DNA of 64,000 nucleotides, from positions 288,001 to 352,000 of the forward strand of contig JAWABJ010000001.1 in assembly GCA_038884755.1 (NCBI GenBank), in the 5' to 3' direction. The notes below the pieces were generated by a model. That model had not been told where the DNA came from. It searched no databases and saw nothing but the letters and a program-made list of their open reading frames with translations. Every line of letters begins with the position of its first letter. Positions within the stretch are counted from its first letter, which is position 1. The DNA comes from Candidatus Norongarragalinales archaeon (GTDB taxonomy: Archaea > Micrarchaeota > Micrarchaeia > Norongarragalinales > Norongarragalinaceae). Positions 12,663 to 44,413 of this stretch are shown one piece after another. The position numbers and the translations under genes were made by a program.

Positions 12663-12730
12663 TTTTTTATCGAAAACGCTTACGGAAAAAGAAATTAAAA
12701 CGCTTTTGTTGCACATACTACCCTGCAGTT

Positions 12731-12898
12731 GCGGCGATGGTCTAGTGGCATGATGCGACCTTCCCAATGAATTTTTCTTCAAGAAAGAAAAGTTCAGTAA
12801 AGAAAAAGGTCGCGGCCCGGGTCCGATAGGTGGGAGAAACACAGTTTCTCTTTCTGCCCTCTTCCTTGCGGTGGAGTACGGAAATCCCGGTCGCCGCA
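12731..12898 (+). tRNA. tRNA-Gly(CCC) with two introns (about 12767-12806 at 37/38; about 12828-12884 in the T-loop)
   Basis: Acceptor stem GCGGCGA/TCGCCGC plus discriminator A; D-arm GTCTAGTGGCATGAT; anticodon arm CGACC-TTCCCA/A-GGTCG; T-stem CCGGG/CCCGG; removing both introns gives 71 nt. Confidence 0.88.
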
Positions 12899-12951
12899 CT
12901 CCGTTTTTCAGAAACGATTTAAATCTTTTTTTTTTCCATATTTCGTTCGTA

Positions 12952-13158
12952 TGCCGGCAAAACCCACGCCGCGCGCAATCGGAGTTTCGCTCTTGCGCGT
13001 CGCAGTCCACGAAGATGTTTTACACTTTTTTTTTCACGAAGAGCATTCGAAGCCCAAGCCGATTCGCTGGGCTTTGCAATTCGCGCTTTGAGGACGTACC
13101 CCGCGTGGAGGGTGAAGCTCCCTCCTCAAACCCAGCACCAGCCTAAGCTACAATAGCA
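12952..13158 (-). ncRNA. Candidate structured RNA element(s): two long G.U-rich stem-loops
   Basis: AGCUUAGGCUGG/UCGGCUUGGGCU 12-bp helix with 5 G.U pairs that form only on the minus strand; second hairpin CGCGCAA-GAGCGAAACUC-..UUGCGCG. Confidence 0.4.
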
Positions 13159-13164
13159 CGGGTT

Positions 13165-13716
13165 TTAGCACTTGAACGTCGAAGCCATGTAGTTTACCAT
13201 TTTCAAGTCTTGCTTGAGCGAAACGGGTATTAGCGAAGTGAGTATTGCGTTGTAGGAAGGGCATTCGAAGTAATGCAGCCTTACCGTGATTTTTTCTCCC
13301 GCGATTTCTTTTTCGAAGGAAATTACCGTCGCCTTGCCGAACGCTTTTCCTTGCGAAAGGGTTTTCCTTTCCTGCGAATCGAGCGAATCTATAGTATCCG
13401 CGGTCAGGGACTGCACGTTTTCGCTTGCAACAGTTATTTCAACCACTTCCGCAATTCCGCGTCCGGATGCGCTGAAACTCACGCGGATTGGGCTGGAAGG
13501 ATCGGGCGATTCGACGGCCCTGAACGACTGCGGATAGCTTATCTCGAATCCAAGCTCGTTCCTGTAAGCAAGGAAATCGTCTTGGCTTACGCCCGAGTAG
13601 TCTTCAAACGCATTTGCCCCGAAGAAGGGCTGAACGTAACCCAGTCCCACGAGAATGCCTACCGCTAGGATTACCGCCGTGACAATCGATATTACCGTTT
13701 TGTTCATGTGTTTCAT
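13165..13716 (-). CDS. Membrane-anchored PsbP-like protein
   Basis: N-terminal TM; Y-R-N-x-x-G-F-E-I-S-Y-P motif; start overlaps the stop of the 3040-aa gene (TGATG). Confidence 0.65.
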   Translation of the reverse strand: MKHMNKTVISIVTAVILAVGILVGLGYVQPFFGANAFEDYSGVSQDDFLAYRNELGFEISYPQSFRAVESPDPSSPIRVSFSASGRGIAEVVEITVASENVQSLTADTIDSLDSQERKTLSQGKAFGKATVISFEKEIAGEKITVRLHYFECPSYNAILTSLIPVSLKQDLKMVNYMASTFKC

Positions 13717-25800: not shown

Positions 25801-28800
25801 CTTGCGCTTCGACCGGAATGGTTTTAGTCAAAAGCAGTTGCACTCCGCTGTTGCAGGCTGTCGCGCCTGAAACGAAAACGTCCGTCGGCTCGACGTTCAA
25901 AAAGTTCGTTGAAACTACTGGCACGTCGCGCGACTGGGCTTTGGCGAATTCAACTCCCGCGTCTGCTTCGACTGCGAAAGTCCCTACAGTTCTCGGGAAA
26001 ACGCTTTTGAAGACGTAAATGCCGTTCTTGCCCGAGTCTTTCTGCCCGTCTCCAGCAAGAGTGTTTCCGCCGTTGGGAAATCCCAAGAACGGGTGGGTTT
26101 CGCCAGTTTCTATGATAGTGAGCACCGCGTTTTCAATTGGCCTTCCTTGCGCTGTAGTGAGCGTGACACGAAGGGGCTGGAATTCAGGGTCGTTCGGGGG
26201 AACGTTCGCTTCCATGACTTGAGGCGTTACGGTCAAAACCATTTGTCCAGTTCCAGTAAACTCGAGCACCGCGTCTGTTGCTGCAATCGGCCCGCCGTCG
26301 TCGGCAAACTCGGCTTTCACTGGCATGTAGTTTCCAGGAGCGCGTGCGTTCGCGATTGTCGAAACAGTTGCTTCCCCATCCACAAGAGCAGGCTGGTGCA
26401 ACTGTTTTTCTATTTCAAGCTTGTTCGACGTTGTGGAAAACCTTGCGATGGGGTTTTCTACCGTTTCGGGCGCGAAGGCTTTGACTTTCGCTTCGAGCAA
26501 AACCTGCTTTCCGAATTCCACGCTCAAAAACCGCGAGGACGTTTTGTTGTCGCTTTTCAGCGTAAGCGTAATGCAGCCTTTGTCGGTGCACTTTTGAAAC
26601 CCTTGCGTAACCTTGTATTCGGAGCTTAGGGTTTCAGCAAAACAATGTTCTTTTGCCGGAACGTTTTCTTTAGTCCCAAGCTCTGCGTCTTCAGGCACTC
26701 TCGCCCACAAGCCGTTCTTGACTGCGAAAGCGCGGTAGCGAAAGTCTATCTTTTCGTTCGCTATTGCCGTGGGGCGAATGCGTATTTTGGCGGAAAGCGT
26801 TTTCACGCCGACTTTTCCAGACGGGTATGAAAACGAAACCCATTTTCTTTCCGAACCGCTTTGCTGTTGCGCCTCTTGCAGGCAAGTGTTTTCTTGGTTG
26901 AAAGTGTTTCCAAAGTCTATTTGCGCGCGGTCTTCCTGCGGCGGCCTGTCGAACGAAGCGATGAACGCCTTTTCTTCGGCAATCGCCTGCTTGTCGCCCA
27001 CCCGCAAGTAAAACCCTGTCTTCTGGGCTTGCGGGAAGCTCACGACGAGCGAAGCCTTGTACCATCCTCCCCTTTCCAGTTCTGTTGCAGAGTGTTCGGC
27101 GTCCAAAACCCCGCTTCCGGTGGAATCCATCTTGTACAAGGAAAAGTTGAGTATTTGCACGTCTTTCGCAAGGTTGGAAGGAAGCATGAGAATGGTTTTC
27201 GCCAGCTCTTGGCCTGTTGCGAGCGTAAGCTCTTCGCTTTGCGTGACTGCATAGCCGTCCGCTTCGGCTTTCAAGAGGACGGGAACGTTGGCGTAGACCG
27301 AGAGGTTGCAGTAAGAACCGTTGGAAGGAGTGTTGCATGACGCTATAGCCTGGTCTTTGTAGAACGCGGTTATGGTTGTGTTTTCAACGAAAGTCTGTTG
27401 CGATTGCGAATAATCTTGCGCGCGTGCGAGTATTCTCGCGAAATTCCTGTCGAGCGTGACTTCAATGGCGGTGGTTTCGCCGGCTTGCACTGCGAAAACG
27501 TCGCTCGAACCACTTTGCGAGCCGAAAATAGCGTGCGCCTTCATTTGCTTGTCCGACTCGACTTCGCTCAACAGCGCGATGCCGTCGCTGTCGGTTTCAG
27601 TTGCCGGATACCCCAAGTTGAACCCGTCTTCAGAAACGAGTTCAACGCTCGCGCCCGCGACAAGCTGGCCGTCGGCATTCCTGACTTTAACTTCAAGCTC
27701 TCCGTTGTTGCCCGCGACTGCTTCGACCAACGACATTTTAGTCGATTCGCCCGCTCGCAGTTGCCTGCTGGTTTTAGGGAGAAAGCCGTCGGCAAAGGCG
27801 GTGGCGTAAAAGTTTTGCGATTTTGAAACTTCGAATTCCGCAATTCCAAATTCATTAGTGTTTTTGTCGTCGATTGTTTTGAACGGCTTTGCGAACAGGA
27901 ACAGCTTTACTTCCGCGTTCCCAAGAGGCTCTCCAGCCTCGTCCGTAACTTGAATAGTGAGCTTGGAATAATCTATAGGCAGCTCGTTGTTCTGTTTTTT
28001 CTTGAGAGAAACGACGAATTCAGTGTTCTTGTCCCCGCGGACGGCTTGAACGTCGTTATTTTCAGCGCCCCTGTAAGGAGCGAAATCGTCGTGCTCTGCA
28101 TTAACGTAAATGCTTACGCCTACAACAACGCTTTCCTGGAAGAAAACCGTTCCCTGCGGGTCGGTGTACCCGCCGGTAATCGCTTCCGAATACCCGTCGG
28201 CGTTGTAGAGCGAAACGAACGCGTTTTCAACCGGGTTTCCTTTCTCATCCTTGACGTGAACGACTATGCTCCCTTTAACTTGTTCTTGTACCACGCTCGC
28301 CTTAAGGGGAATCAGGCATTCTTTTTGCGAGGGAATGCAGTTTTTGAATTCAGACTCGAACCCTTCAGCAGTAACGCGAAGGCGGAAGACCGCGTCTTGG
28401 TTGGAGTAGGTTATTTCGGCTTCGCCCAGGGCGTTGGTGGGATACTGCTGGAGGCTTCCGGTTTCAGGGTCGGAGAAAGTTACGAGAGCGTCGGGAACCG
28501 GGTCGCCTTCGAGGCTTGCGACCACCACCTTGAACGTTTTGGTGGAAGGCTCGAGCATCGCGATTATTTTCTTTCCCGTAAGCACGACTTTCTTTTCGTA
28601 CTTTCCCGAAGGGTGTTGGATTGAAAGCTCGGCAGTCGCGTCTTTGGGAAGTCCTTCTAAGCGGGCGACGCCGTTCTTGCTTATGGCAGAAAATTCCTTG
28701 CCGTCTTCGAGCGTGAGGAGCACGCGCGCGCCGGTGACAGGCTCGTTGCTTTCGCTCAAAACAGTTACTTCCACTGCAACCGTGTTTCCGAACGGAAGTC

Positions 28801-29005
28801 CGAACGAAGAGCCCGCGAGAACGAAAGCAATTCCGCCTATTATTACGGCCAGGAGGAGTATGAAGAACGGGAACGACGGGACTCCGCGGTCTTCGATAGG
28901 GTTTACAAACCAATCGTAAATTTTCAGTCCTTTGCCTTGCAGCCAGTCGCAGAACGCGTAGTACTTGTCTTCAATCGAGAAATAGAATTTCGACAAAGGA
29001 TTCAT
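22892..29005 (-). CDS. Giant (2037 aa) N-anchored cell-surface protein, paralog of the 3040-aa protein
   Basis: Uninterrupted 6.1-kb ORF; N-terminal aromatic helices plus TM; about 6 carboxypeptidase-regulatory-like repeats; Cys-rich modules; P/S/T linkers. Confidence 0.9.
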   Translation of the reverse strand: MNPLSKFYFSIEDKYYAFCDWLQGKGLKIYDWFVNPIEDRGVPSFPFFILLLAVIIGGIAFVLAGSSFGLPFGNTVAVEVTVLSESNEPVTGARVLLTLEDGKEFSAISKNGVARLEGLPKDATAELSIQHPSGKYEKKVVLTGKKIIAMLEPSTKTFKVVVASLEGDPVPDALVTFSDPETGSLQQYPTNALGEAEITYSNQDAVFRLRVTAEGFESEFKNCIPSQKECLIPLKASVVQEQVKGSIVVHVKDEKGNPVENAFVSLYNADGYSEAITGGYTDPQGTVFFQESVVVGVSIYVNAEHDDFAPYRGAENNDVQAVRGDKNTEFVVSLKKKQNNELPIDYSKLTIQVTDEAGEPLGNAEVKLFLFAKPFKTIDDKNTNEFGIAEFEVSKSQNFYATAFADGFLPKTSRQLRAGESTKMSLVEAVAGNNGELEVKVRNADGQLVAGASVELVSEDGFNLGYPATETDSDGIALLSEVESDKQMKAHAIFGSQSGSSDVFAVQAGETTAIEVTLDRNFARILARAQDYSQSQQTFVENTTITAFYKDQAIASCNTPSNGSYCNLSVYANVPVLLKAEADGYAVTQSEELTLATGQELAKTILMLPSNLAKDVQILNFSLYKMDSTGSGVLDAEHSATELERGGWYKASLVVSFPQAQKTGFYLRVGDKQAIAEEKAFIASFDRPPQEDRAQIDFGNTFNQENTCLQEAQQQSGSERKWVSFSYPSGKVGVKTLSAKIRIRPTAIANEKIDFRYRAFAVKNGLWARVPEDAELGTKENVPAKEHCFAETLSSEYKVTQGFQKCTDKGCITLTLKSDNKTSSRFLSVEFGKQVLLEAKVKAFAPETVENPIARFSTTSNKLEIEKQLHQPALVDGEATVSTIANARAPGNYMPVKAEFADDGGPIAATDAVLEFTGTGQMVLTVTPQVMEANVPPNDPEFQPLRVTLTTAQGRPIENAVLTIIETGETHPFLGFPNGGNTLAGDGQKDSGKNGIYVFKSVFPRTVGTFAVEADAGVEFAKAQSRDVPVVSTNFLNVEPTDVFVSGATACNSGVQLLLTKTIPVEAQVHYQVSGGSNESQCVEVLQPPRSPFTMKKGKAGQNEKTQVRVRPIKNTDCSLAFNSVLEGSGSAGFAETNFVVDCASLGEPSPTPSPGACSKENCTACNEGQCINLQNQGACKAVYENNQFKRCEQRKTQENKTADFCAAQRFDLGSLLASRLGFMSAQRIFNPNRNDRALAASATNRIVRIPRPPFFQIERASPDCEIQNGKLVCTKKVSPLVPSNGIALSLKNALGFNTQIATETKKPQCFSIRKVENIGLAKIGDFARKTISGAFRLPGGQYATLVVLFEPDQPGCAEYSYDQEKGVTLTPAQGRNELTLTIRDASNLGQAVKLDIVLKIEGESSKYAIASAPNFQSLNGIATRVNNAVEPAVIANNLQFESVEVGDAKIPAKDIASVAVGFPAEGYEFKIGTKTQPNIKTIQNNIEKASFDAVGNARTGVDAVSACTGQEFCFIENNKDFEQALKEEISEDLRKITGTMDSVSFTQAFDYDRVMLETAMTSALQDYLAGLIAYEACKKAGEDPIGDLRQRCASNRLSPQELPLNMGDAFASGFLAATCDSEVLNLASYATSGSVGLPGGYLNTLARRLVTQYILPGRAPIQVNHRIFRNLDTLINVPVKIAGEKGGFVVYSFQPSESIGLHQSGGYPDDFFGMQGFGSQCVPGDQSTCPFPNQCQFDPSVGMGRCVPGALYNNPFQFGPGFDAGNPFDYSYSDAQFQTPLNDDAVIVELKGTYGFGTQDYKRTDKSSSGFAASGMPYLKAGNPAELKGDGGSPNLLTMNKYGFADEIDTKDFLSVFSNAQQAQLAEFFKQELSKEALSAQVKEAIKSNALATEKTVKVVLKAGNESSISIKPIAPPAPSPSATPLPSPSPSPLPSPRPTPTPKAYEGFQYVQPKLSPNLVEKKLDEKPSATPEFELTVMFKVDADNPVKLDAQNSLKSVLAALKYLLDEKAPPLTCQLQASESSVSNAEACAVGR

Positions 29006-29185: not shown

Positions 29186-30250
29186 CTAGAAGTCGATGGA
29201 CGAGAGTCCAACGGCTTCGTTTACGCCGCGCCTTTCGCGTTCCTTGTGCGAAAGCACGTGCGGAGAGGTTACGCCAGTGATTACGCTCGTGACGATTATC
29301 TTGTCTCCCATTTCGGGAATCACGCGCGCTCCCCACTTTACGTAAGCATTGCCGTCGAACGACTCGGTAATGCCTTCTCCTATGCTAATGGCGTCACCGA
29401 GAGTGAGCGTGGAACCTCCTTGAATCAAGACCAACGCGCCTTTGCTTCCGGCGTAGTCGACGTCCAACAGCGGGTGCGCCAGGCTGCTTTGCACTGCTTG
29501 TTCCACGCGCTGGCTGCCTGTGCCTTCGCCTATGGAAATCATGGCATCGCCTGCGTTGCCCATTATCATGCGCAAGTCGGCGAAGTCAATGTTCACGAGT
29601 GAAGGAAGCATGACTGTGTCGGTAATGCCTTTCACTGCTTTCGCAACCAACGTGTCAGCAACTGCAAACGCTTGGTTCATCGGCAAGTTCGGGACGAATT
29701 CTACGAGCTTGTTGTTGTCGATTATCACCGTGGTGTCGCAGTTTTCGCGCAACGCATCCAAACCCCAGTCTGCTTTCGTCAAACGCGCGCGTTCCAAGGC
29801 AAAGGGATACGTGACCATGGAAACGACTATCGCGCCTTGTTCCTTGGCGACTTGCGCGACTACTGGCGCTGCGCCCGTTCCCGTCCCTCCGCCCATTCCA
29901 GCAGTGATGAAAACGAGTTCGCTTCCGGACAGAGCTTCGGCGATTTTCTCGCGGCTTTGCTCGGCTGCCTTTTGCCCGACTTCTGGAAATCCTCCCGCGC
30001 CCAATCCCCTGGTAAGCTGCGCTCCTATCAAGAACCTGCGGTCGGCTTCGATCATTTGCAAGTGCTTTTGGTCGGTGTTGATTGCAATGGTCTTGGCGCT
30101 TTGGATGCCCATCTTGTGCAGGCGGTGGACAGAATTCGTTCCTGCCCCTCCTACTCCAACCACGCTTATTTGTATTTTCGAAGCTTCGAAAGCCTTGCCT
30201 TCTCCAGCTGCTGGCGAGGTTTTCAACGCGTCTTCAATCAAACTGTTCAT
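29186..30250 (-). CDS. ftsZ: Cell division protein FtsZ (FtsZ2-like), copy B
   Basis: GVGGAGTN, INTDQKHL, GLGAGG, GGGTGTG, ERAR, DNNKL..VPNLP, NIDFAD. Confidence 0.97.
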   Translation of the reverse strand: MNSLIEDALKTSPAAGEGKAFEASKIQISVVGVGGAGTNSVHRLHKMGIQSAKTIAINTDQKHLQMIEADRRFLIGAQLTRGLGAGGFPEVGQKAAEQSREKIAEALSGSELVFITAGMGGGTGTGAAPVVAQVAKEQGAIVVSMVTYPFALERARLTKADWGLDALRENCDTTVIIDNNKLVEFVPNLPMNQAFAVADTLVAKAVKGITDTVMLPSLVNIDFADLRMIMGNAGDAMISIGEGTGSQRVEQAVQSSLAHPLLDVDYAGSKGALVLIQGGSTLTLGDAISIGEGITESFDGNAYVKWGARVIPEMGDKIIVTSVITGVTSPHVLSHKERERRGVNEAVGLSSIDF

Positions 30251-30334
30251 TTTCACATCATCTCCGGCGGGTTTCTTTTTTTTTCAAACACTTTTTTTCT
30301 GAAAAAACAAAAAGAAAAGGGAAAATCGGCTTTC

Positions 30335-31402
30335 TCAGCCGATTATTTCAATTTCGTACTGTTTTTTGGTCTCCTGCTGGGACTTCGGCGTCGTTTTTCC
30401 GACAATGTGGCTGCTCTTTACGCCCGTTACGATGGCAGTGATTTCCAGTTTTCCGTCGTACTCGGGAATGAGCCTTGCGCCCCATTTTACGGATGCGGTC
30501 GGGTCCATTGAGCCGGTAAGCAGTTCTCCTGCACGAATTGCGTCTCCGAGCGTGAGGTCGGCTCCTCCTGCAATGTGGATCAAAGCGCCTTTCGCCCCGT
30601 CCAAATCGACGTCAAGCAGGCGGTTCTTGAGAACGCCTTCCACCGCGTCTTCAACCTTGTTGGCTCCCTTGCCCGTTCCAACAGCAATCATTCCAACGTC
30701 GCCGTTGCCCATTATGGCGCGGACATCCGCGAAATCGATGTTCACGAGAGAGGGTTGCGTGATTGTGAAGACTAGTCCTCCGACTGCTTTCGCGAGAATT
30801 TCGTCTGCAACCAAGAATGCCTGGTTCATGGGCAGGTTGGGTACGAGCTCAACAAGCCTGTTGTTGTCCAAGACAATTACGCTGTCGCAAACCTCGCGCA
30901 AGCGTGCAATGCCTTCATCTGCTTTGGTGACGCGCGCTCTTTCAAGCGAGAACGGGTACGTGACCATGGCGACTACGATTGCGCCTTGTTCCTTGGCGAT
31001 TTGGGCTACGACCGGGGCCGCGCCCGTTCCCGTTCCTCCGCCCATTCCGGCGCACAAGAACACCAAGTGCGAGCCTTCAATGTTCTTTTCTAGGGTTTCG
31101 CGGTCCACTTCGGCGCATTTCGCGCCGACTTCGGGAAATCCTCCTGCGCCCAATCCCTTGGTAACGCTTTTTCCTATGAGCACTTTGATTATGGATTCGT
31201 CGAGAATGTTCAAATGCTGGCGGTCGGTGTTGCACGCCATCAAGTGCGCGCCCTTCACGTTGAGCCTCTTCAAGCGGTTGACCGTGTTGTTTCCGCCTCC
31301 TCCTACGCCTACTACCGTTATTTTTATTTCCTCAAACTCGTCCCCGGATTTTTTTACGGCCGCGGTCGGGGATTGCAGCGCGCTCTTCACAATGTCTTCC
31401 AA
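30335..31402 (-). CDS. ftsZ: Cell division protein FtsZ (FtsZ2-like), copy A
   Basis: GVGGGGNN, NTDRQHL, GGGTGTG, ERARVTKA, DNNRL..VPNLP, TITQPSLVNIDFAD; start placed at TTG 31402 after GAGGCG (uncertain). Confidence 0.96.
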   Translation of the reverse strand: MEDIVKSALQSPTAAVKKSGDEFEEIKITVVGVGGGGNNTVNRLKRLNVKGAHLMACNTDRQHLNILDESIIKVLIGKSVTKGLGAGGFPEVGAKCAEVDRETLEKNIEGSHLVFLCAGMGGGTGTGAAPVVAQIAKEQGAIVVAMVTYPFSLERARVTKADEGIARLREVCDSVIVLDNNRLVELVPNLPMNQAFLVADEILAKAVGGLVFTITQPSLVNIDFADVRAIMGNGDVGMIAVGTGKGANKVEDAVEGVLKNRLLDVDLDGAKGALIHIAGGADLTLGDAIRAGELLTGSMDPTASVKWGARLIPEYDGKLEITAIVTGVKSSHIVGKTTPKSQQETKKQYEIEIIG

Positions 31403-31607
31403 TCCAATCGCCTCTTTTTTTTCGGTGGGTGTTTTTTCCTGCTTAAAACGCGTTTTTCCCCGCGTTCCAGGCAGTGAAATGCGAACGAATCTGCTATTTA
31501 AAAACCTTGCTATTCCACAAATATGTTTTGATAGGTTTGGAAATGTTTTCAGCGGACTGGATTTCAAGAACGCTTTTTCCCGCCGAAAACCGCCAGCCGG
31601 TATATCC

Positions 31608-31625
31608 AAGCATATGCTTTTATAT
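31608..31625. promoter_or_regulatory. 12-bp perfect palindrome AAGCATATGCTT overlapping a TATA-like TTTTATAT
   Basis: Seen directly in the ftsZ/RHH divergent intergenic region. Confidence 0.4.
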
Positions 31626-31698
31626 GCGACTTTCTTTATTTGGAGTGCTCGCACGGCGTTATGCCGTTTTTCCCTGCGCAGAGCAAGTGGTGATGTGA

Positions 31699-31881
31699 AT
31701 GGGTGCTGATTCTGAATCGTTTCTTGTAACCGTCCCTTTGGACTGGGATTTGAAAGACCACGCTGAAGGGAAAAGAAAATTCCCGAGCGTGCAGGACTTC
31801 ATCCGCGAACTGATTCGAAGGGATATTGAATCTTACGACAAGGAAACGCGCGAGAGCGAAGCGAAAACAAACGGGAAATAA
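31699..31881 (+). CDS. Ribbon-helix-helix (CopG/Arc/MetJ, CdrS-like) transcription factor
   Basis: 60 aa: beta strand FLVTVP, then KFPSVQDFIRELIRRDI; GGTGA SD; divergent from ftsZ pair. Confidence 0.7.
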   Translation: MGADSESFLVTVPLDWDLKDHAEGKRKFPSVQDFIRELIRRDIESYDKETRESEAKTNGK

Positions 31882-35252: not shown

Positions 35253-35705
35253 ATGAAAATTTCACTCTTCCTAGGAATAGTCGTTTTCGTGATTTGCTTC
35301 GGCGGAGTTTTGTATTTGAATTCTTCCAACCCAGAAGGAAAGCTTTTCGTTTTCACCCCGCCGTACAATTACGTTGTCGGCGACACGCTGAGTTTTTTCA
35401 ATTCCTTCCTTTTCGTTTTCATCCTGTCCGCGGCTTTTTTTGGCATAGCCGCGCCAATAGCGTTGGGAATGGAGGGGTTGAAATACGCTTCCCTGCTTTC
35501 AGCGGGGCTCATGCCAGTTTACGACGTTCTCTTCGTGATACCCTCATTGTTGTCCGCCTACTCGGCTTCGCTCTTGGGGCAAGGGGCGATTGAAGACTAC
35601 CAGGGTAAGGGAAGCGTTTTCGGGCACTGGCAGGATGCGGTGAAATGGTTTGCCGTCGGAACGGCGATTCTTGTGATTTTAATACTCGCGCGCGGTTATT
35701 TGTAA
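35253..35705 (+). CDS. Membrane protein, SpoIIM-like C-terminal half (cluster gene 1)
   Basis: 4-5 TMs; N..F..LS..FFG...EG.K and P..L.A..A..LG patterns reminiscent of SpoIIM. Confidence 0.7.
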   Translation: MKISLFLGIVVFVICFGGVLYLNSSNPEGKLFVFTPPYNYVVGDTLSFFNSFLFVFILSAAFFGIAAPIALGMEGLKYASLLSAGLMPVYDVLFVIPSLLSAYSASLLGQGAIEDYQGKGSVFGHWQDAVKWFAVGTAILVILILARGYL

Positions 35706-35719
35706 GAGAGGTTTTTAGA

Positions 35720-36172
35720 ATGCTGCAAGCGCTGTTTCCGAATTTCGTGTTGTTCGGCGGGTTTTTCGAAATTTTCGAGACGCTGGGAGAATTAGACTTC
35801 GTGATTCGCGTGATGGTCTTTTCCTACATTCTCTTTTGGCTTTACACCACTTTCATGCCCGCTCGCGCGGACTTGCTTTTCGGAATCGGCGGCATAATCG
35901 CGGGATACTTGATTTTCGCGCACGGCGTTTCAATAACTTTGATAGTGGCGTTTTTCGTGCTGTTCATAGTCGGCGGCATGATGATACAACAGGTTTTGAT
36001 GTTCGGCCTGCTGCCTTTGCTGGGATACCAGTACGTGGGCGACAGGTTCATGAAGGCGAACGAGCTTCACGGAAGCCCGTCGAACGCCGAAGCTTTGGCA
36101 AAGCAATACTACAGTCCGGGAATGGCGATGCTGGGCAGTCGAATGGTCGAACAAGAACAGCAACAAAGGTGA
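35720..36172 (+). CDS. Small membrane protein, family A (cluster gene 2)
   Basis: GAGG SD; YILFWLY...GIIAGYLIFAH; Q-rich tail. Confidence 0.8.
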   Translation: MLQALFPNFVLFGGFFEIFETLGELDFVIRVMVFSYILFWLYTTFMPARADLLFGIGGIIAGYLIFAHGVSITLIVAFFVLFIVGGMMIQQVLMFGLLPLLGYQYVGDRFMKANELHGSPSNAEALAKQYYSPGMAMLGSRMVEQEQQQR

Positions 36173-36181
36173 AAATCGAAA

Positions 36182-36541
36182 GTGCTTGACGGGTTTGCTG
36201 CATTTGCGGTTTTTTCAATAATCGACGACATAGTGAATTTGATTACTTGGAGCTGGTGGCTTTGGCTTTTCTTTCTCGCGTGGTACTTTTACAAGTGGGC
36301 GCAAGACCACTTGGGTTTTTCGCCCATACTGGCGTTGGCGGTGGGTGGAATTTTGATTTACTTCCTCGTGATAGAACACCCGATAATCGGAACGGTGTCT
36401 GTTTTCACTTGGATGCTGTTGATGAGCGGAATACTGTTCCTGCTGCCGATGGTGACGGCGTTGTTCAACACGTTTTTCCACCATCCGCCGCAAATGCAGC
36501 AGCCGCAGCAAGGAGGTTTCGAGCAACATGGCTATACGTAG
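36182..36541 (+). CDS. Small membrane protein, family A (cluster gene 3)
   Basis: GGTGA SD; YFYKWAQDHLGFSPIL...GILIYFLVIEHP; P/Q-rich tail. Confidence 0.82.
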   Translation: MLDGFAAFAVFSIIDDIVNLITWSWWLWLFFLAWYFYKWAQDHLGFSPILALAVGGILIYFLVIEHPIIGTVSVFTWMLLMSGILFLLPMVTALFNTFFHHPPQMQQPQQGGFEQHGYT

Positions 36542-36938
36542 GCGTTTGAAGATACTCAGGGGGTATTACATTTCCGCGCACAGGCAGCGCATGGATTTTT
36601 TCAACTGGAAGTGGCGCTTGTTCGTCATACTTCTTGCCTCTCTTTTGGTGTTGTTCATAAACGATTACTTGCAGGCGAAGTACGTCGGAACCGTGGCTTT
36701 CGAAGCGAAAGCCGACGGCTCGCTCGAGGCGGCTGCCTATGCAATGCCCGACAAATTATTCAATTGGTTCATGACCGGCGTTCTTTTCGGCATAGTGGCG
36801 TTGGCGGTTTTGTATGAAGGCGAGTTCATTCTCGGGCTGCGCAAGATGATAGCGCGTTTCGAAAAACAGGCTGAAACTCAATTCGGGAGGGTGGCGGGAG
36901 TGCGGCAACGAAAGGCTGTTAAACAAAGAAGGAAATAG
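36528..36938 (+). CDS. Small 2-TM membrane protein with basic tail (cluster gene 4)
   Basis: Two hydrophobic helices, YEGEF motif; start at 36528 or 36591. Confidence 0.75.
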   Translation: MAIRRRLKILRGYYISAHRQRMDFFNWKWRLFVILLASLLVLFINDYLQAKYVGTVAFEAKADGSLEAAAYAMPDKLFNWFMTGVLFGIVALAVLYEGEFILGLRKMIARFEKQAETQFGRVAGVRQRKAVKQRRK

Positions 36939-36953
36939 GATTTTGTGTAAAAA

Positions 36954-37265
36954 ATGCTCGAGCTCCTTTCTTTCATTCCCGTTTTCTTATTCGACTTTAT
37001 CGAAGCCCTCACGGTCGTGATAATAATCATCGACTTCATCATGGTTTACAAGTATTTCTATCCTGAAGTCGTTGGCTCGCAGATTCTCGGCATAGTGATT
37101 ACCACCATAATCACTTTCCTTTTGATAATCCCCTACCCGTTCATGGCCTGGGTGGTGTTCTTCATTACTTTCGCCTACTCTTTCTTCTGGGGCTTCCAGC
37201 CTTGGACTTGGGCCAAGGACGAGCCGCTTGAGGGGGACAGGCAAACGGCCGAGCAAGGACCGTAA
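36954..37265 (+). CDS. Small membrane protein, family A-like (cluster gene 5)
   Basis: YKYFYPEVVGSQILGIVITTIITFLLIIPYP. Confidence 0.8.
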   Translation: MLELLSFIPVFLFDFIEALTVVIIIIDFIMVYKYFYPEVVGSQILGIVITTIITFLLIIPYPFMAWVVFFITFAYSFFWGFQPWTWAKDEPLEGDRQTAEQGP

Positions 37266-37280
37266 GGAGTGTAATCGCCA

Positions 37281-37565
37281 ATGGATTTTACGGCTCTCTT
37301 CATAGTAGTCCTCATGATACTGGCGGCGAAAACCGGACTGCTTTGGATTGCAGTAGGCTTAGGCGTGTTGCTTTTGGTGACGTCGAAAGGCTCTTATGCT
37401 ATTGCAGCCGCGCTTTTGGGAATAGGCGTTGCCGCGGCAATTTATTTCCTGGGCGAAAGCGACTTGAGCTTTTATGTCATGGTCGGAGGCTTGGGCGTGG
37501 TGCTATTGATTTTGGCCAAGAAAGAGTCAGACCAGCCTTCGGGCTACTACCCGCCTGCAGTTTAA
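37281..37565 (+). CDS. Small Gly/Ala/Leu-rich membrane protein (cluster gene 6)
   Basis: GGAG SD; 3-4 short hydrophobic segments; GYYPP tail. Confidence 0.8.
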   Translation: MDFTALFIVVLMILAAKTGLLWIAVGLGVLLLVTSKGSYAIAAALLGIGVAAAIYFLGESDLSFYVMVGGLGVVLLILAKKESDQPSGYYPPAV

Positions 37566-37626
37566 AGCACGCTGCGTAATGCAGAGATTAACACGTTTTA
37601 AAAGCAAGATTGAATCTTATTCGTAC

Positions 37627-37980
37627 ATGTCTTGGCTTTTGGCAGGCGCGCTTTTCGCGATAGGAATCCTGCTTTTGGATTCGTCCCAGTTCATCGGCTT
37701 TCTCACCATTCTCGCCGGAGTTTTCGCCTTGCTCGTCAAGCCCTCGCGCGCGGCGCATGCTGTCGCAGCACCACAACAGGCTTACTCCCAGCCGCAAATA
37801 ATAATAAAATCCGGGGGCCACGCGCCCAACCTCGAGAGGATAAAACTAAGGGTAAAGGAAGGGTGGACGGGAACGACTTCTTACGAAGACCTGATGACCA
37901 ACCTTTCGGACTTGGTGCTGTTTCCCGTGAAAATACTTTGGCGCTTGCTGCGAATCGGAAGGGGTGCCAAGAAAAAATGA
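37627..37980 (+). CDS. Small 2-TM protein, family B (cluster gene 7)
   Basis: TM hairpin, QPQIII, IKLRVKEGWTG, amphipathic helix, KKK end; TTTAAAA about 25 nt upstream. Confidence 0.78.
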   Translation: MSWLLAGALFAIGILLLDSSQFIGFLTILAGVFALLVKPSRAAHAVAAPQQAYSQPQIIIKSGGHAPNLERIKLRVKEGWTGTTSYEDLMTNLSDLVLFPVKILWRLLRIGRGAKKK

Positions 37981-38324
37981 ATTTGCTCATGCTCGCGGTG
38001 CTTGGAGTTTTGGCCTGGTACTCGTTCGAAAACGGGCTGGAGTTTTTCGGGGTTCTCGTGATAATAGCGGGCGTCTTGTTTTTGCTTACCGGCAAGCCAG
38101 AACGGAGCGTGCAGCACGGCTATTCTCCCGCTTTGCAGCCTTTGGTCATCGAGGACGACGGCACGCCCGGCGGCACGAAAGAAATAAACATGAAAGTTAA
38201 AAAGTGGAAGGACAGGTGGTCTGGCCACCCCAACGAATACGCCTTCCAGCACGTGGGACTGGCGTTGAACAACATCGCGCGCAGTTTCCTCTACATTCTG
38301 GGCATAGAAAAAGACAAAAAGTGA
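37977..38324 (+). CDS. Small 2-TM protein, family B (cluster gene 8)
   Basis: ATGA overlap with gene 7; MNLLMLAVLG...QPLVIE...INMKVKKWKDRWSG...EKDKK. Confidence 0.8.
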   Translation: MNLLMLAVLGVLAWYSFENGLEFFGVLVIIAGVLFLLTGKPERSVQHGYSPALQPLVIEDDGTPGGTKEINMKVKKWKDRWSGHPNEYAFQHVGLALNNIARSFLYILGIEKDKK

Positions 38325-38338
38325 AAAGCTGGTGTGTC

Positions 38339-38659
38339 ATGGACGCGTCTTCTTTCTCTCTCGTTCTCTTCATTCTCGCGGGATTGAGCCTGCTCAGCGG
38401 GCTCGAGTGGCTTTTCGTGGTTTTCGTTGCGCTTGGCTTGGCTTTGCTTTACTACGACCGCAACTCGCCGGTCGTTGAAGAAAAGCAGGCGCCGGAGCAA
38501 AAAACCTCCCCCGCGTCCGCGCAGCAGGTTGTAATAGTAAGGCAGGATTCCAGCTTGAGCGACGCGATTGCGGACAAGATTGTCGAGCACACCAAGCTCG
38601 AGCACTTGACCGGGACGAAACGCGAAATAGCCGAGCTCAAGAAAAAACTCAAGAAATAA
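38339..38659 (+). CDS. Small 2-TM protein, family B-like (cluster gene 9)
   Basis: GGTG SD; TM hairpin with GLEW, QQVVIV, helical basic C-terminus. Confidence 0.78.
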   Translation: MDASSFSLVLFILAGLSLLSGLEWLFVVFVALGLALLYYDRNSPVVEEKQAPEQKTSPASAQQVVIVRQDSSLSDAIADKIVEHTKLEHLTGTKREIAELKKKLKK

Positions 38660-39101: not shown

Positions 39102-40964
39102 ATGAAATCTAGCAAAGTCTTCTTGTTTTTCATCGCTTTTTTCGCGCTCGCGAATATTGCCTTTGCGGCTAACGACGCTTTCGTCAACGCAAGCTTGGTT
39201 ACCACCGCAATCAAGGCGAACGACGTAGCCGCCAATACTACCGTAAACGGCAACGCTTCTTACAGCGTTTTGTTCAACACCTCTGCAACAGCCTACAACC
39301 GCACCGCTTTCAACATCACTTTTCCCGCCGGGTTTATCATGACCAACGCCATGCCCGCAAACCGGAGCGGAACCACCGGATTTTTCTACCTCAACGGCAC
39401 TTACAACGGCTCGCTCGGCTACACTTACCGGGTGACCGGCCAGGTTTTCGAGATTTTCGTGATAATAAACGCCTCCCAGCCTGTAGCGAACTGGTCTAAC
39501 ACGAACATCAACGTCACCATCGCAAACGTCCAGAACACGAACGTTTCCGCAACCTACCAGACCACAGTCCGCGCTTTCGATTCGGCGCAAAGCAACATGA
39601 CCACCGAAGGGCCTAACGTTTCAGCCGCCTTCAGCCTCGACACTTATCCCGCCTACAACATAAGCATAGCTTACGGCGACGGGCAAAGCGGCACGGTCAA
39701 CACTTCCCTCACCACCAACATCACCGCACTGGTGACCGACAATTTCGGGAACGCGATTGGCAGTTATCCCGTGAACTTCACCGCCCTCAACTTTACCTTG
39801 TACGACGGGAGGGTTGGAAAGAACGGCACTCACGCGACAATGTACCAGTCTCTCAACGCCACGACGAATTCCACCGGCCACGCCGGCATCCTGGCGTTCA
39901 TAGGCAACACCACGCTCAACACTACAACCGCGCGCTACGGCTACAACGCTACGGGCTTTAACCTGACTATCAACGCCACTTCCTACCAAATCCCGACCGC
40001 CTCGAGGATTTCCTACTATCTCGTGACTCCTTCCACCACGAGCACTACTACGGACACGGCGTTCACCATTCTCGTGTCTTCATACGACCCGTTCCACAAC
40101 ATCAACGGCACCAGCGCTTGGAACGGCACTCTCAACATGTCTTCAAGCGAAAGCATCGCGACCCTCACGTATTCCACAGACGGAACTACTTACGTCGCTT
40201 GGCCTAGCGCGGGCGTAAACCGGGCTCTGACCAACGGAAACGTGACCACGTGGTTCAAGCAGTCCATCAACGCCGACCTGACTTTCAACTTTACCGACAC
40301 CGGCGCAACGCAATCGACGGGCGTTTCCGCGCAAGTGCAAGTGCGAAGCGGCGGAGTAAACGGCGGTGGTGGTGGCAGCAGCACTCCAACTCCGACTCCA
40401 ACCCCGACGCCCACTCCAACCCCGACAGCAACGCCGTCCCCCTCTCCTGCCCCGCGTTTCGAACGCAACGTTGACTCTTCGACCAGCGTGGTGGGAGTAT
40501 TCGGCTCTTCGAGCACTTCCTTCACTCTCACCTACACTGCAGGAAGCGGCGGGTTTTACGGGGACTTGACCTGGCGCCTGCCTTTCGATTATGCCGATTT
40601 CCAAGCAGGAAAAATCACCTTCAATCCGGCTCCCAAGCGGGTGATAAAAGGAAGCGTTCTCGCAACGTGGGAGAACGTAGACTTGAAGGAAGGCGAAAAG
40701 CTTACTGTGGGCATAACCGTTAACCAAGCGATGGATTCGAGCGTCATGCAGCAGTTCGCCAAGCCGAGCTTGAGCGCAAAGAAAAGGCCTTTGCCAACCC
40801 CAACCCCTGTAGTACAGCCTTCCGTTGCGCCCACTGCGACGCCGAAAGCCGTAGCCCAAGCGCAAAAGGCCGACTACACGCTTTGGATAATACTGCTCGT
40901 GCTCCTGATTGCGGGCGGGTATTACTTCTTTGCGATGCGCAAGAAACGCGGGCTGTACAAGTAA
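39102..40964 (+). CDS. Secreted, heavily N-glycosylated cell-surface (S-layer-like) protein with C-terminal TM
   Basis: Signal peptide ending AFA; 33 N-x-S/T sequons counted in the first ~410 aa; Big-1-like V-T-D-N-F-G-N segment; (TP)n linker; TM plus RKKR tail. Confidence 0.85.
   Translation: MKSSKVFLFFIAFFALANIAFAANDAFVNASLVTTAIKANDVAANTTVNGNASYSVLFNTSATAYNRTAFNITFPAGFIMTNAMPANRSGTTGFFYLNGTYNGSLGYTYRVTGQVFEIFVIINASQPVANWSNTNINVTIANVQNTNVSATYQTTVRAFDSAQSNMTTEGPNVSAAFSLDTYPAYNISIAYGDGQSGTVNTSLTTNITALVTDNFGNAIGSYPVNFTALNFTLYDGRVGKNGTHATMYQSLNATTNSTGHAGILAFIGNTTLNTTTARYGYNATGFNLTINATSYQIPTASRISYYLVTPSTTSTTTDTAFTILVSSYDPFHNINGTSAWNGTLNMSSSESIATLTYSTDGTTYVAWPSAGVNRALTNGNVTTWFKQSINADLTFNFTDTGATQSTGVSAQVQVRSGGVNGGGGGSSTPTPTPTPTPTPTPTATPSPSPAPRFERNVDSSTSVVGVFGSSSTSFTLTYTAGSGGFYGDLTWRLPFDYADFQAGKITFNPAPKRVIKGSVLATWENVDLKEGEKLTVGITVNQAMDSSVMQQFAKPSLSAKKRPLPTPTPVVQPSVAPTATPKAVAQAQKADYTLWIILLVLLIAGGYYFFAMRKKRGLYK
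40383..40450 (+). repeat. Thr-Pro dipeptide repeat linker
   Basis: ACT CCA/CCG-type codon repeats encoding TPTPTPTPTPTPTPTATPSPSP. Confidence 0.9.
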
Positions 40965-41019: not shown

Positions 41020-41110
41020 AAACCATTTAACCCCCTTCTTGTTACTACTTTTTTGTAGTAAGGTATAAAAAGGAGGGTTTTGCAAAAATCTATAACGAGT
41101 GGTTTTTGCA

Positions 41111-41398
41111 ATGGCCCTTGACGGAGAAACGCTGGTCATACTGATATTCATAATTCTAGCCGTAGGCACTTTGAACAACGGCGGCTGGAGCACCGACCAC
41201 CCGCTGGTGTGGGCCCCTGCGATGTTGGTGCAAGCGCCTTTCGCGTTGTTCAGCGCTATTTCTTCAACCGCGCCTTTGCTGGCGCCACTTGCATTAATAG
41301 GTCTGTTGGCTTACGTGAATTTCATAGGCGCCACGCTGGGCGAAGCGTTTTTGACCCTGGTGGTTTTCGGCTGGATAATCGTGTTCATGGGAGTTTAA
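41111..41398 (+). CDS. Small membrane protein
   Basis: 95 aa, 3-4 hydrophobic segments, MALDGETL start. Confidence 0.7.
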   Translation: MALDGETLVILIFIILAVGTLNNGGWSTDHPLVWAPAMLVQAPFALFSAISSTAPLLAPLALIGLLAYVNFIGATLGEAFLTLVVFGWIIVFMGV

Positions 41399-41591: not shown

Positions 41592-42155
41592 TCAAGTTTT
41601 GCTTCTGAGAAGGAGTTTCCTGTCGGTATCCAGGATTTTTTGGTTGATGTTTTCCAGCGCCTTGAGCAGGGCGAGCGCCTCGTCGATTTTTTCCTCGAGC
41701 GTTTCAGGCTGTGAGGCTTTGGCGCCGGCAGCCGGAATTTCGATTTTCTCTTCCTTTTCTTCCTCGGGCTCTTCTTCCTTTTCCTCGCGGACTATTTCAA
41801 CTTGCGGTTCTTCCAATTCCTTTTTTTCTTCCTTTTCCTTGAACAGGCTTTTCCCCTGCGTTTCGACCAGGTCGCTCACGCTTATTTCCAGCTCGCCCTT
41901 CCTTTTTTGAGGCGAAGCCGCTGCCGCCGCGACGGGCTTTTGCGTTTTTTCCTCGGAAATTTCCTTGAACAACCCGCCTTGGGGTTTTGGAGTTGCGGCG
42001 GGCGAAACTTGGGTTGCCGGAGGCTTTTGCGTTGCAATGGCCTCGTCGAAAAGCTTTTCCGCGTCCCCGACCCCGAGTTCCTTGAGGTTGGTTATCACCT
42101 GCTCGCGGGTAAGCCCTTTGTCGAGCAGCTGCCTTATGACGATTTTCAAATCCAT
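41592..42155 (-). CDS. Hypothetical protein: helical N-domain, acidic linker, C-terminal coiled coil
   Basis: MDLKIVIRQLLDKGLTREQVITNLKELG...LEEKIDEALALLKALENINQKIL. Confidence 0.75.
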   Translation of the reverse strand: MDLKIVIRQLLDKGLTREQVITNLKELGVGDAEKLFDEAIATQKPPATQVSPAATPKPQGGLFKEISEEKTQKPVAAAAASPQKRKGELEISVSDLVETQGKSLFKEKEEKKELEEPQVEIVREEKEEEPEEEKEEKIEIPAAGAKASQPETLEEKIDEALALLKALENINQKILDTDRKLLLRSKT

Positions 42156-42250
42156 ACGCACAATAACCCGAACAGGCTTTTTAACTCTTTTTCGCTTTGC
42201 TTTGCGGACGTTGCGCAACTGCTTTAAAACGAAAGCGGCTAATGCATAGC

Positions 42251-43714
42251 ATGGAATTGGACTTGCCTTTCGGGCCTTGGAAGGAGATTGCGTCGGCGGA
42301 TTGGAACGGCGTTCCCACGGGCGTATACGCGAATTCTGAAAAGCTTTTGCTCATGGTCGCTTTTTCGAAAGAGCCGCCTTCGGAAGGGAAAGGGAAAAAG
42401 CAGGGCGAGGAATCGGCTTTGCCCGAGCTTCCTTCAGGAAAGCAAGGGGTTTTGGTTTTGCTGAAAAAACCCTTGTTTTTGGAGGGGCCCGGCGGGAGCG
42501 TTGAAAAGTTTCTGCAAAACCAGACGCGAGACTTGAGCTTGGTTTCGAAAGTTTTGGACAAGAGGCATTACACTTACGTTTTGCTTGAAGCCCAGCCGTT
42601 TTTCGTGGAGTTCAGGAAGGAAGAGCTGGTGAAAGCGGTGAAAGCGCAGCGCGAGGAGGTTGAAGCGCTGGCGAAAATAACTTTCGACGTGGCCCGCAGC
42701 TACGGCTGCAGGGCGAGGGAGTTGGACAAGACTGAAGAAGGCGTGAGCGAAAACCTTTTGGGCGACCCGGTTTCGTTGTTCGCCTTCAGCGGGTTCAAGG
42801 GAAGGCAGTCTTCCTCGCAACTGCAGGAAAAGAAATCCGTTTTGGGCTTCGGGGCTGACGGACAGCAGGTGGAAATTTCCCCGGCCGAAATGCAAGTTTC
42901 CCTGGTTTCCGGACAGGGAAAGCAGCCGCGCTTGAAGGCGATGCAAGTTTGCATCGAAAACCTCTTGATTTCGGGAGTGCCTTGCCTGGTCGTGGGCGAA
43001 AGCGATTTCTTCCAGTGCCTCGCTTTCCCCAACAAGAATTCGGTAGAGCTGGAAAAAGCGGGCTTGCCGAAAGCGTCGGGCTTTCCGCTGAAAAGCTATT
43101 CGCTGGGCAAAGGGTTTTACATCGACTTGCGCTTCGTCCAGGCCAAGTCTTTTTCAAAGCTTTTCTTTCCTTCGGAACTGCAGGGTTTGGTTGAAGGCGC
43201 TTGGGGCGAAGGCACGCTTTCCGGCCTGAGGGAAAAGCTCGAGCAACAGCAGCAGAAGTACGCTTTCGCGAAGGCGATTCGCATTTTAAGCGCAGCTGAA
43301 AAAGCGTTTCCCGGCTTTTTCGCTTCTAATTCCGCGGAAGAGCTGAAAAACCCGTGGTCTGCAACCGGGAAAGTGGCGTTGTTGAACGCCGAGGCCGGCG
43401 AACTGCACGCGCTTGCAGTCGAAAGCGTTTTGAATTCCTTGGGCGAGCCGAAGGAAGGGAAAACGCTGGCTGTTGTTTTGGAGTCTGACGCGGCGAAACT
43501 GCCTGCGGAAACGATAGGGATTTTGTCTTCGGTTCAAAGCAAGCTGTTCCTGGTTTTGAATACAGAGTCGGACGCGGGAGAAACTGCGTTGGAATCCATC
43601 GCGCCCACGCTGAGGATTGAGTTGCTGGGCGCGACTTCCGCAAGCGGAGAGGTTGTCGCTTACTTTTCGGGAGAAAAAAAGAGGCTGGTTTTGAGGCCGG
43701 CTTTCTCGTCTTGA
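42251..43714 (+). CDS. HerA/FtsK-like P-loop protein with degenerate Walker motifs
   Basis: SVLG..DG..VEI...SLVSGQGKQPRLKAMQVCIENLLISGVPCLVV..DFF..L..PN pattern; late AVVLESDA strand. Confidence 0.6.
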   Translation: MELDLPFGPWKEIASADWNGVPTGVYANSEKLLLMVAFSKEPPSEGKGKKQGEESALPELPSGKQGVLVLLKKPLFLEGPGGSVEKFLQNQTRDLSLVSKVLDKRHYTYVLLEAQPFFVEFRKEELVKAVKAQREEVEALAKITFDVARSYGCRARELDKTEEGVSENLLGDPVSLFAFSGFKGRQSSSQLQEKKSVLGFGADGQQVEISPAEMQVSLVSGQGKQPRLKAMQVCIENLLISGVPCLVVGESDFFQCLAFPNKNSVELEKAGLPKASGFPLKSYSLGKGFYIDLRFVQAKSFSKLFFPSELQGLVEGAWGEGTLSGLREKLEQQQQKYAFAKAIRILSAAEKAFPGFFASNSAEELKNPWSATGKVALLNAEAGELHALAVESVLNSLGEPKEGKTLAVVLESDAAKLPAETIGILSSVQSKLFLVLNTESDAGETALESIAPTLRIELLGATSASGEVVAYFSGEKKRLVLRPAFSS

Positions 43715-43717
43715 GTT

Positions 43718-44413
43718 TCAAGCTTTGGCGGCTTGCTCGGACTGTGCTATTTCGGCGGCGTCGCCAATGCTTTCGCTCAGCACTTTCAAGAAGATTTCGC
43801 CGAAAACCTCGTCCTGCCAGGCGTCCACTTTCTGCGAGTTTACCAAGTGCAGGATTGGAATGAAGTGCTCGACCGTCTTTCCTTCGCTCAATTCGGAAAA
43901 CAAAACGAGGCTGTCGGCGTCTTTCAGCGCCTTCGCCTTTTCGAAAACGTCGGAAATCCTTTCGCCCATGGTTTTTTGCGGAAGCTGCACGTTCAGGGCG
44001 ATGGGCGCGGGGATGATGCGTTGTATCCTCCTGCCCTGCTTCATGACGCTTTCCACCGCAGTCATGAGCTCTTGAAGGGTAACGCGCCGCGCGCGGGGGC
44101 GGTTGGGCTTGAGGATGAGCTCGGGCAGTTCTTCTTGGATGAGCATTGGCGTTTCTTCTACGGCCGCGTCGTAATACTCTTCCAGAGGCTTCCATTCAAG
44201 TGCGTCAGCTTTGAACCTTAAGAGCAATGAAGATGCGAGAATGACGTTGGCGGGAATGCGCAAGTCCAGCGACTCCCAGTTTTTAATGCGTTCGAGGCAT
44301 TTGTCGGCTACTTCGCACAAGTCAATGTCCCACGGGTCCATTTTCTCGCTTTGCACTAAGTCTACTAGGAACTCTCGCCACGTGGGTTGCACTACTACTT
44401 CCAACAAATCCAT
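43718..44413 (-). CDS. scpA: Segregation and condensation protein A (kleisin)
   Basis: MDPWDIDL, LLRFKAD, RRVTLQELM, FIPILHL, QDEVFGEI. Confidence 0.92.
   Translation of the reverse strand: MDLLEVVVQPTWREFLVDLVQSEKMDPWDIDLCEVADKCLERIKNWESLDLRIPANVILASSLLLRFKADALEWKPLEEYYDAAVEETPMLIQEELPELILKPNRPRARRVTLQELMTAVESVMKQGRRIQRIIPAPIALNVQLPQKTMGERISDVFEKAKALKDADSLVLFSELSEGKTVEHFIPILHLVNSQKVDAWQDEVFGEIFLKVLSESIGDAAEIAQSEQAAKA

Follow-up and report, generated by a model that had tools for sequence, protein, structure and literature searches.

A conserved cluster of small membrane protein genes in Norongarragalinales archaea, plausibly tied to giant surface proteins

Among described systems, the DNA import machineries Ced of Sulfolobales and Ted of Thermoproteales are nearest in logic to the locus reported here, a run of nine small membrane protein genes (g1 to g9, Table 1) from a Candidatus Norongarragalinales archaeon (Micrarchaeota; contig JAWABJ010000001.1 of assembly GCA_038884755.1). 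The 64,000-nucleotide (nt) stretch of this contig that was analyzed, positions 288,001 to 352,000, is referred to as the window. As outlined in the published account, Ced consists of a channel with six to seven transmembrane (TM) segments, two 2-TM proteins and an ATPase. Both systems are chromosomal, vertically inherited, lineage-restricted and extremely divergent in sequence, and in the same account the Ced and Ted pilins themselves lack recognizable similarity (PMC9905601). The cluster resembles Ced and Ted in these four respects, and also in having small 2-TM proteins that adjoin a HerA/VirB4-family gene (here K7, in 23/36 loci). Unlike them, it has no gene for a 6-7 TM channel (the largest subunit has four to five helices), its ATPase-like K7 has no Walker A motif at the P-loop position (0/15 sequences), and its 8-10 small subunits fall into two paralog families and have a genomic link to anchored giant proteins. 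PDB searches with the g3, g4, g6 and g7/8 profiles gave no sequence match to CedA1 or TedC chains.

Three other comparisons bear on single features of the locus. The Eha/Ehb and Mrp/Mnh operons likewise consist of long runs of tightly packed small membrane genes, but here there is no match to their families, no antiporter-like large subunit in the genome and no hydrogenase gene nearby. In size and helical membrane build g1 is like SpoIIM/DUF95 (PF01944), without matching that family. The g7 and g8 proteins resemble TatA/TatB and reticulon/REEP proteins in that an amphipathic helix and a basic tail come after a membrane anchor; the long linker between anchor and helix and the lack of a Pfam, NCBIfam or PDB match set them apart, and the resemblance is one of architecture only.

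Our analysis confirms that the nine genes are a real, order-wide and previously undescribed gene set. Profiles of g1, g3, g4 and g6 were searched across samples of the phylum, in which fast divergence could hide homologs, and the window's own genome (G000, 0.93 Mb, 93% complete) was left out of the counts. The g1 profile matched 16 of 17 order genomes and none of 133 other Micrarchaeota; the corresponding figures were 33/34 against two weak matches in 266 for g3, 27/28 against one weak, stop-containing match in 222 for g4, and 26/28 against two weak matches in 222 for g6. A single-query search found g1 in 51 of 61 genomes, and a word-indexed search with the g4 profile returned 38 proteins. Where single sequences gave weak matches outside the order (G097, G282, G174, G213 and G104), the fetched loci contained no cluster gene, and the breadth search yielded no matches on viral contigs.

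Gene order was counted over 52 distinct loci, with each denominator limited to loci with enough flank; only labelled families entered the count, and insertions without a label would be missed. The order g2-g3 is conserved in 50/50 loci, g3-g4 in 51/51, g1-g2-g3 in 36/48 and g3-g4-g5-g6 in 34/44. In a set of 40 loci, g9 was labelled in 14. The g1 gene was not found in five genomes of families f8 and f9 (G032, G033 (also by profile), G042, G050 and G054), four of which keep g2 to g7. Because g1 is dispensable in some lineages, the core is g2 to g6 or g7 rather than all nine genes. Order-wide profiles (16/17 to 33/34 genomes) and conserved gene order support the original prediction, made from the letters of the window, that the set is vertically inherited and lineage-specific. 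This conservation holds within the order; in the other Micrarchaeota sampled, the profiled genes were hardly found (at most two weak matches in 133-266 genomes).

The cluster comprises nine plus-strand open reading frames (ORFs) of 94-150 amino acids (aa) between positions 35253 and 38659, and the tight same-strand spacing first described was reproduced, with gaps from g1 to g9 of 14, 9, -14, 15, 15, 61, -4 and 14 nt. The longest of these, before g7, carries TTTTAAAA and matches the originally noted gap of about 60 nt only if g7 starts at the ATG at 37627; with the alternative ATG at 37579 it shrinks to 13 nt. We favor the downstream start because orthologs likewise begin with MSW or MAW. Shine-Dalgarno-like words, first noted for several genes, are clear upstream of g2, g3, g4 and g6, weak upstream of g8 and g9, and were not seen upstream of g1, g5 and g7. 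In all nine genes, comparison with a close relative (L152) shows the lowest divergence at codon position 2 (0.04-0.26) and the highest at position 3 (0.44-0.55), and they are therefore constrained protein genes; shadow ORFs were rejected as a reading of the nine. Their G+C content at third codon positions (0.58-0.72) overlaps that of seven core genes (0.58-0.70), in agreement with the core-genome codon style noted originally, and no mobility family occurs among the roughly 50 window ORFs scanned. A mobile element was rejected on both grounds. The 3.5-kb stretch ranks first in the genome in a crude density scan, which counts as weak support because the filter picked up just four of the nine genes.

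Alignment hydropathy predicts two to four membrane segments with short loops per family. The claim that all nine proteins are hydrophobic holds for these segments and only in part for g4, g8 and g9 as whole proteins (grand average of hydropathy 0.09-0.13). Long soluble stretches occur as tails; that of g4 is basic, those of g2 and g7-g9 are mixed in charge, and conserved charges lie mainly outside the hydrophobic segments. Tail amphipathicity exceeded that of shuffled sequences in 36/37 g7/8 and 27/30 g4 sequences, and in just 10/31 g2 sequences. Comparison of profiles with hhalign supports two paralog groups, as had been proposed: g3/g5 (P 84), and g7/8 with g9 (P 96), to which the hairpin of g6 is related (g6~g9, P 82). 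Placement of g2 with g3 (P 34) is weak, since noise among hydrophobic families reaches P 63 (g4~g9). Each locus carries one to three copies of the g7 family. In relatives, the probable tenth member c13 lies 3' of g9 or, encoded on the other strand, separates g4 from g5.

Profile searches identified no known subunit, including those of Mrp, Eha/Ehb and secretion systems, consistent with the initial view that no described system matches. A Pfam and NCBIfam scan of the nine proteins gave nothing close to a cut-off, and PDB sequence-profile searches with g1, g3, g4, g6, g7/8, K7 and the PsbP-like protein described below reached at best E 0.11; the g7/8 match to SecG, at E 0.11, is not significant. 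The AlphaFold2 model of g1 has five helices (predicted local distance difference test score, pLDDT, 96), and Foldseek against the PDB returned a best E of 0.42 and nothing at E<=0.001. The suggestion that g1 is SpoIIM-like was not supported: 0/40 g1 sequences match PF01944 at E<=0.1, the family model picks two other genes of the window's genome and skips g1, and we rejected membership in this family by profile. In the ESM Atlas, the third match of g1 (0.87, short of the threshold) is to a cluster of which 23% is PF01944, and the Atlas structure has a template modelling score below 0.5. A true SpoIIM-domain protein is encoded at 11787-13010, immediately downstream of the giant operon, with a second copy at G000:C1:94493. 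A full-text search, with subscription papers and supplements such as the orthogroup tables of PMC12892359, which may list these genes, outside its scope, found no published description of the cluster, and neither 'giant' nor 'membrane protein' occurs in the main text of that paper.

We favor, with a probability of roughly 45%, the reading that the nine genes encode a platform in the membrane for N-terminally tethered giant surface proteins, which it would anchor, cluster or help to assemble. Conserved gene order and the retention of all pieces where family f10 has split the set speak in its favor, as do the amphipathic tails, the locus L165 and the missing Walker A of K7. A partnership with giant proteins had been raised in the original prediction, and both neighborhood and distribution argue for it. 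In nine genomes from five families (G026 and G036 of f2; G031 and G049 of f7; G032 of f8; G033, G057 and G059 of f9; G035 of f11), a giant gene, the gene of a tethered protein, a DUF424 gene and the cluster follow one another on a single strand, sometimes interrupted by one or two unrelated genes. The tethered protein, which we take to be PsbP-like, has no Pfam or PDB match; the DUF424 gene is probably unrelated. The giant anchor profile matched all 17 order genomes with 5-12 matches each, against seven weak matches in 133 genomes elsewhere, which cover the downstream beta-sandwich part only and miss the anchor motif; seven ORFs match in the window's genome. The PsbP-like profile matched 17/17 order genomes and gave one weak match in the 133 others. 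The giants thus share the order-restricted range of the cluster, although kinship makes such profiles non-independent.

From these sequence data we infer assembly into one complex, contact with the N-terminal module of the giants and a scaffold role for the downstream proteins K5 and K7. In this platform, the three-helix paralogs g2, g3 and g5 would form the core together with g4 and g6, and g1 would be an accessory subunit. The basic or amphipathic tails of g4 and g7-g9 would lie on the cytoplasmic face, as the positive-inside rule suggests from their charge bias, and could either grip the conserved short N-terminal module of the giants or impose curvature on the membrane. A cytoplasmic scaffold, not a motor, would be formed by K5 together with K7, which is likely inactive.

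A suggestive sign of a wider link comes from metagenomes. A HMMER search of 1.84 billion representatives with the g3 profile found eight g3-family proteins, four of them divergent, and their alignment led to 16 metagenome loci: twelve typical, two deep-branching (L151 and L164), one distinct (L165) and one spurious (L166). The deep-branching loci carry a version of the cluster in which the PsbP-like gene is inverted and g9/g7 are on the opposite strand. In L165, two giant genes are followed after 112 nt by g2-like, g3-like, g3/g5-like and g6-like genes. These score 13.7, 19.5, 17.3 and 24.0 bits, whereas the highest null scores among 9640 own-genome ORFs were 10.5, 7.2, 7.2 and 8.9 bits. The L165 giant has an anchored architecture like that of the order's giants. 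L165, a very divergent contig, is probably from Iainarchaeota, because the giant's one named homolog comes from Ca. Diapherotrites (27% identity). With the g3/g5-like protein of L165 as query, 151 Micrarchaeota genomes gave one weak, stop-containing match.

Several observations weigh against the platform. Adjacency to the giant operon is the rarer arrangement: of the 34 loci with at least 5 kb upstream, just 12 have the PsbP-like gene ahead of the cluster on its strand, and in the window's genome the giant operon is 6.2 kb away on the opposite strand. That DUF424 rides in the block indicates that bystander genes get carried along, and where a genome of about 1 Mb has 5-12 giant genes, loose proximity means little. 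The arrangement seen in five families may go back to a single inheritance, related genomes do not count as independent, and the same profile would be expected of any core gene of the order that evolves fast. Predicted outer loops are at most 30 aa long, so direct contact with the outer parts of the giants is unlikely. As to L165, it is a single contig, its g2-like score barely exceeds the null, no g1 or g4 equivalent was found in it, and its giant has no significant profile match to the giants of Norongarragalinales.

A bolder version, which we consider doubtful, dates the system back to the last shared ancestor of Micrarchaeota and Iainarchaeota, as an ancient machine of the cell envelope. 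About ten tiny membrane subunits would form a basal body over a catalytically dead HerA/VirB4-type ring, and the machine would build and hold an array of 5-12 giant surface proteins; it would have persisted in those lineages regarded as least dependent on hosts, and other Micrarchaeota would have lost or replaced it. Norongarragalinales are placed as sister to all other Micrarchaeia (PMC8561730) and, in the published argument at least, are possibly host-independent (PMC12892359).

Two genes downstream of the cluster bear on another explanation. K5 is convergent on the cluster in 24/36 loci, with K7 next to it and divergent from it in 23/36. The K7 profile matched 16/17 order genomes, with one weak match in the 133 others, so that linkage and shared range support the degenerate HerA-like partner first proposed. 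ESM Atlas grouped K7 with HerA/DUF87/CedB clusters (0.92-0.94), and single family members gave faint matches to DUF87 (E 0.07) and TraC-F (E 0.05), while profile searches of K7 against Pfam, NCBIfam and the PDB gave nothing significant. The K7 model (pLDDT 83) shows an N-terminal domain with a beta-sheet and a long helix, and an alpha/beta core. A canonical Walker A is missing from the P-loop position in all 15 sequences, and the lone GxxxxGKT word in the window's K7 (near residue 405) is off-site and unconserved; K7 is likely an inactive pseudo-ATPase. Outside the window, the genome encodes a DUF87 ATPase of 1053 aa in which Walker A and B are both intact (G000:C1:568152-571313); it is the genome's sole such match and a possible active partner. 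These features would suit a domesticated conjugation-like contact channel of Ced, Ted or type IV secretion system (T4SS) type, in which the hairpins are pilin- or VirB3-like and K7 derives from VirB4 or CedB, perhaps powered in trans by the intact ATPase. The part list of Ced, as described, offers a parallel. We nevertheless judge this unlikely: besides the missing Walker A, the cluster has no CedA/VirB6-like gene, the g1, g3, g4, g6 and g7/8 profiles match no pilin or T4SS chain in the PDB, and the g7-g9 hairpins bear long charged tails.

It is also improbable that the locus holds two or three independent small modules (g1; g2-g4; g5-g9 with K5) that persist in an ancestral giant-gene neighborhood without a joint function with the giants. 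In family f10 the set is split into g1, g2-g3-g4, g5-g6-g7-g9-K5 and K7, and the cluster thus breaks exactly at the module joints; the five genomes without a detected g1, the insertions between g4 and g5 in some loci, and DUF424 as an example of a persisting bystander agree with such modules. Yet every piece was retained in the five f10 genomes tested (5/5), the paralogs g3 and g5 lie on opposite sides of the break, and in L165 the g2-like to g6-like genes stand together beside giants.

Less probable again is a membrane-shaping or division-site scaffold, in which hairpin and amphipathic-helix proteins would curve the membrane of these tiny cells, with reticulon/REEP proteins and FtsZ anchors as models. 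The g7/8 hairpin with its amphipathic tail (36/37) and the coiled-coil-like C-terminus of K5 fit, as do two ftsZ genes 3.6-6 kb upstream, here and in close relatives. This vicinity was, however, seen only in the window's genus-level relatives and not in the other families fetched, equally small other Micrarchaeota have no detectable homologs, and there is no family match. Largely refuted, and very improbable, is a divergent complex for ion translocation or energy conversion, built of Mrp/Mnh, Eha/Ehb or ATP synthase membrane subunits: the Eha/Ehb-like run of small subunits and one g4 homolog (P0032) automatically named 'MnhB' speak for it, but the nine proteins match no Pfam or NCBIfam family, the antiporter-like subunit PF00361 was not found in the 93% complete G000, hydrogenase neighbors are lacking, conserved charges lie mostly outside the hydrophobic segments, and ATP synthase subunits K, I and C, like Sec61-beta, are encoded elsewhere in the genome. 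On these grounds, membership in Mrp/Mnh or Eha/Ehb and identity with ATP synthase subunits or, judged by Sec61-beta, with Sec small subunits were rejected.

Table 1. Genes of the cluster and of its neighborhood (window coordinates unless a G000 contig is given)
Feature	Position	Strand	Description
g1	35253-35705	+	150 aa; accessory membrane protein of five helices; in some lineages apart from the cluster or not found
g2	35720-36172	+	150 aa; 3 TM and Gln-rich helical tail; probable distant paralog of g3/g5
g3	36182-36541	+	119 aa; GTG start, 3 TM; conserved motifs YxW..HLxFSP and LIYYLVIEHP
g4	36528-36938	+	136 aa; 2 TM, tails basic at both ends; Y/R/R and GxxxG..EGE conserved
g5	36954-37265	+	103 aa; 3 TM, g3 paralog
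g6	37281-37565	+	94 aa; 3-4 TM, MDFT start, P/G/Y tail; N-terminal hairpin g9-like
g7	37627-37980	+	117 aa; starts with a hydrophobic hairpin, joined by a linker to a C-terminal amphipathic helix
g8	37977-38324	+	115 aa; g7 paralog
g9	38339-38659	+	106 aa; g7-type hairpin and charged helical tail
c13	41099-41398	+	Small membrane gene, probable tenth member
K5	41592-42218	-	Soluble; conserved N-terminal helical domain, C-terminal coiled-coil-like motif
K7	42197-43714	+	HerA/CedB/FtsK-like, no Walker A at P-loop position; likely start near 42242
Giant protein 1	22892-29005	-	2037 aa; N-terminal anchor module and carboxypeptidase-regulatory-like repeats
Giant protein 2	13716-22838	-	3040 aa; family upstream of cluster in five other families
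Tethered protein	13165-13719	-	Membrane-tethered; between giant gene and cluster in relatives
Giant anchor ORFs	22892-29005, 13716-22838, 8765-9280; G000 C1 260809, 266377, 600725, C3 23755	- (first two)	Match anchor profile

Further genes were noted around the locus. Relatives (L038, L044, L052, L053 and L057) carry a conserved gene for a coiled-coil protein, k15, after K7; in the window's genome k15 adjoins DUF424 instead (G000:C1:181996-182705), which suggests a rearrangement of the two ends of an ancestral block. The scpA gene (43718-44413) is convergent on K7 and lies close to the cluster in four loci. Very large ORFs in three other genomes weakly match the P-loop region of the K7 profile (G051:C12:135448, 12373 aa; G039:C9:30143, 5337 aa; G031:C1:14751, 5236 aa), and would thus encode huge proteins with a HerA-like domain. 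Within the block, positions 39102-40964 encode a surface protein of 620 aa that is rich in Asn and Thr, bears a PT stalk and has no Pfam or NCBIfam assignment; a 694-aa protein with multiple immunoglobulin-like domains (47185-49269) lies beyond it. The tandem ftsZ pair (29186-31881) is divergent from a 60-aa ORF that resembles a ribbon-helix-helix regulator, presumably CdrS-like, without a Pfam match.

To our knowledge, surface building and cell contact in DPANN archaea are largely open questions, and we know of no assembly route for giant surface proteins. The locus offers a compact list of candidate parts: besides the 9-10 small membrane proteins it includes a coiled-coil protein, a likely pseudo-ATPase and an outer protein that is tethered. 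Each is of a length that suits structure prediction and co-expression, and the tie of this gene set to giant surface proteins is plausible. Its genes can serve as markers of Norongarragalinales. Because the cluster was found in this order and not in the 133-266 other Micrarchaeota sampled, it may mark a difference in lifestyle rather than a general host junction.

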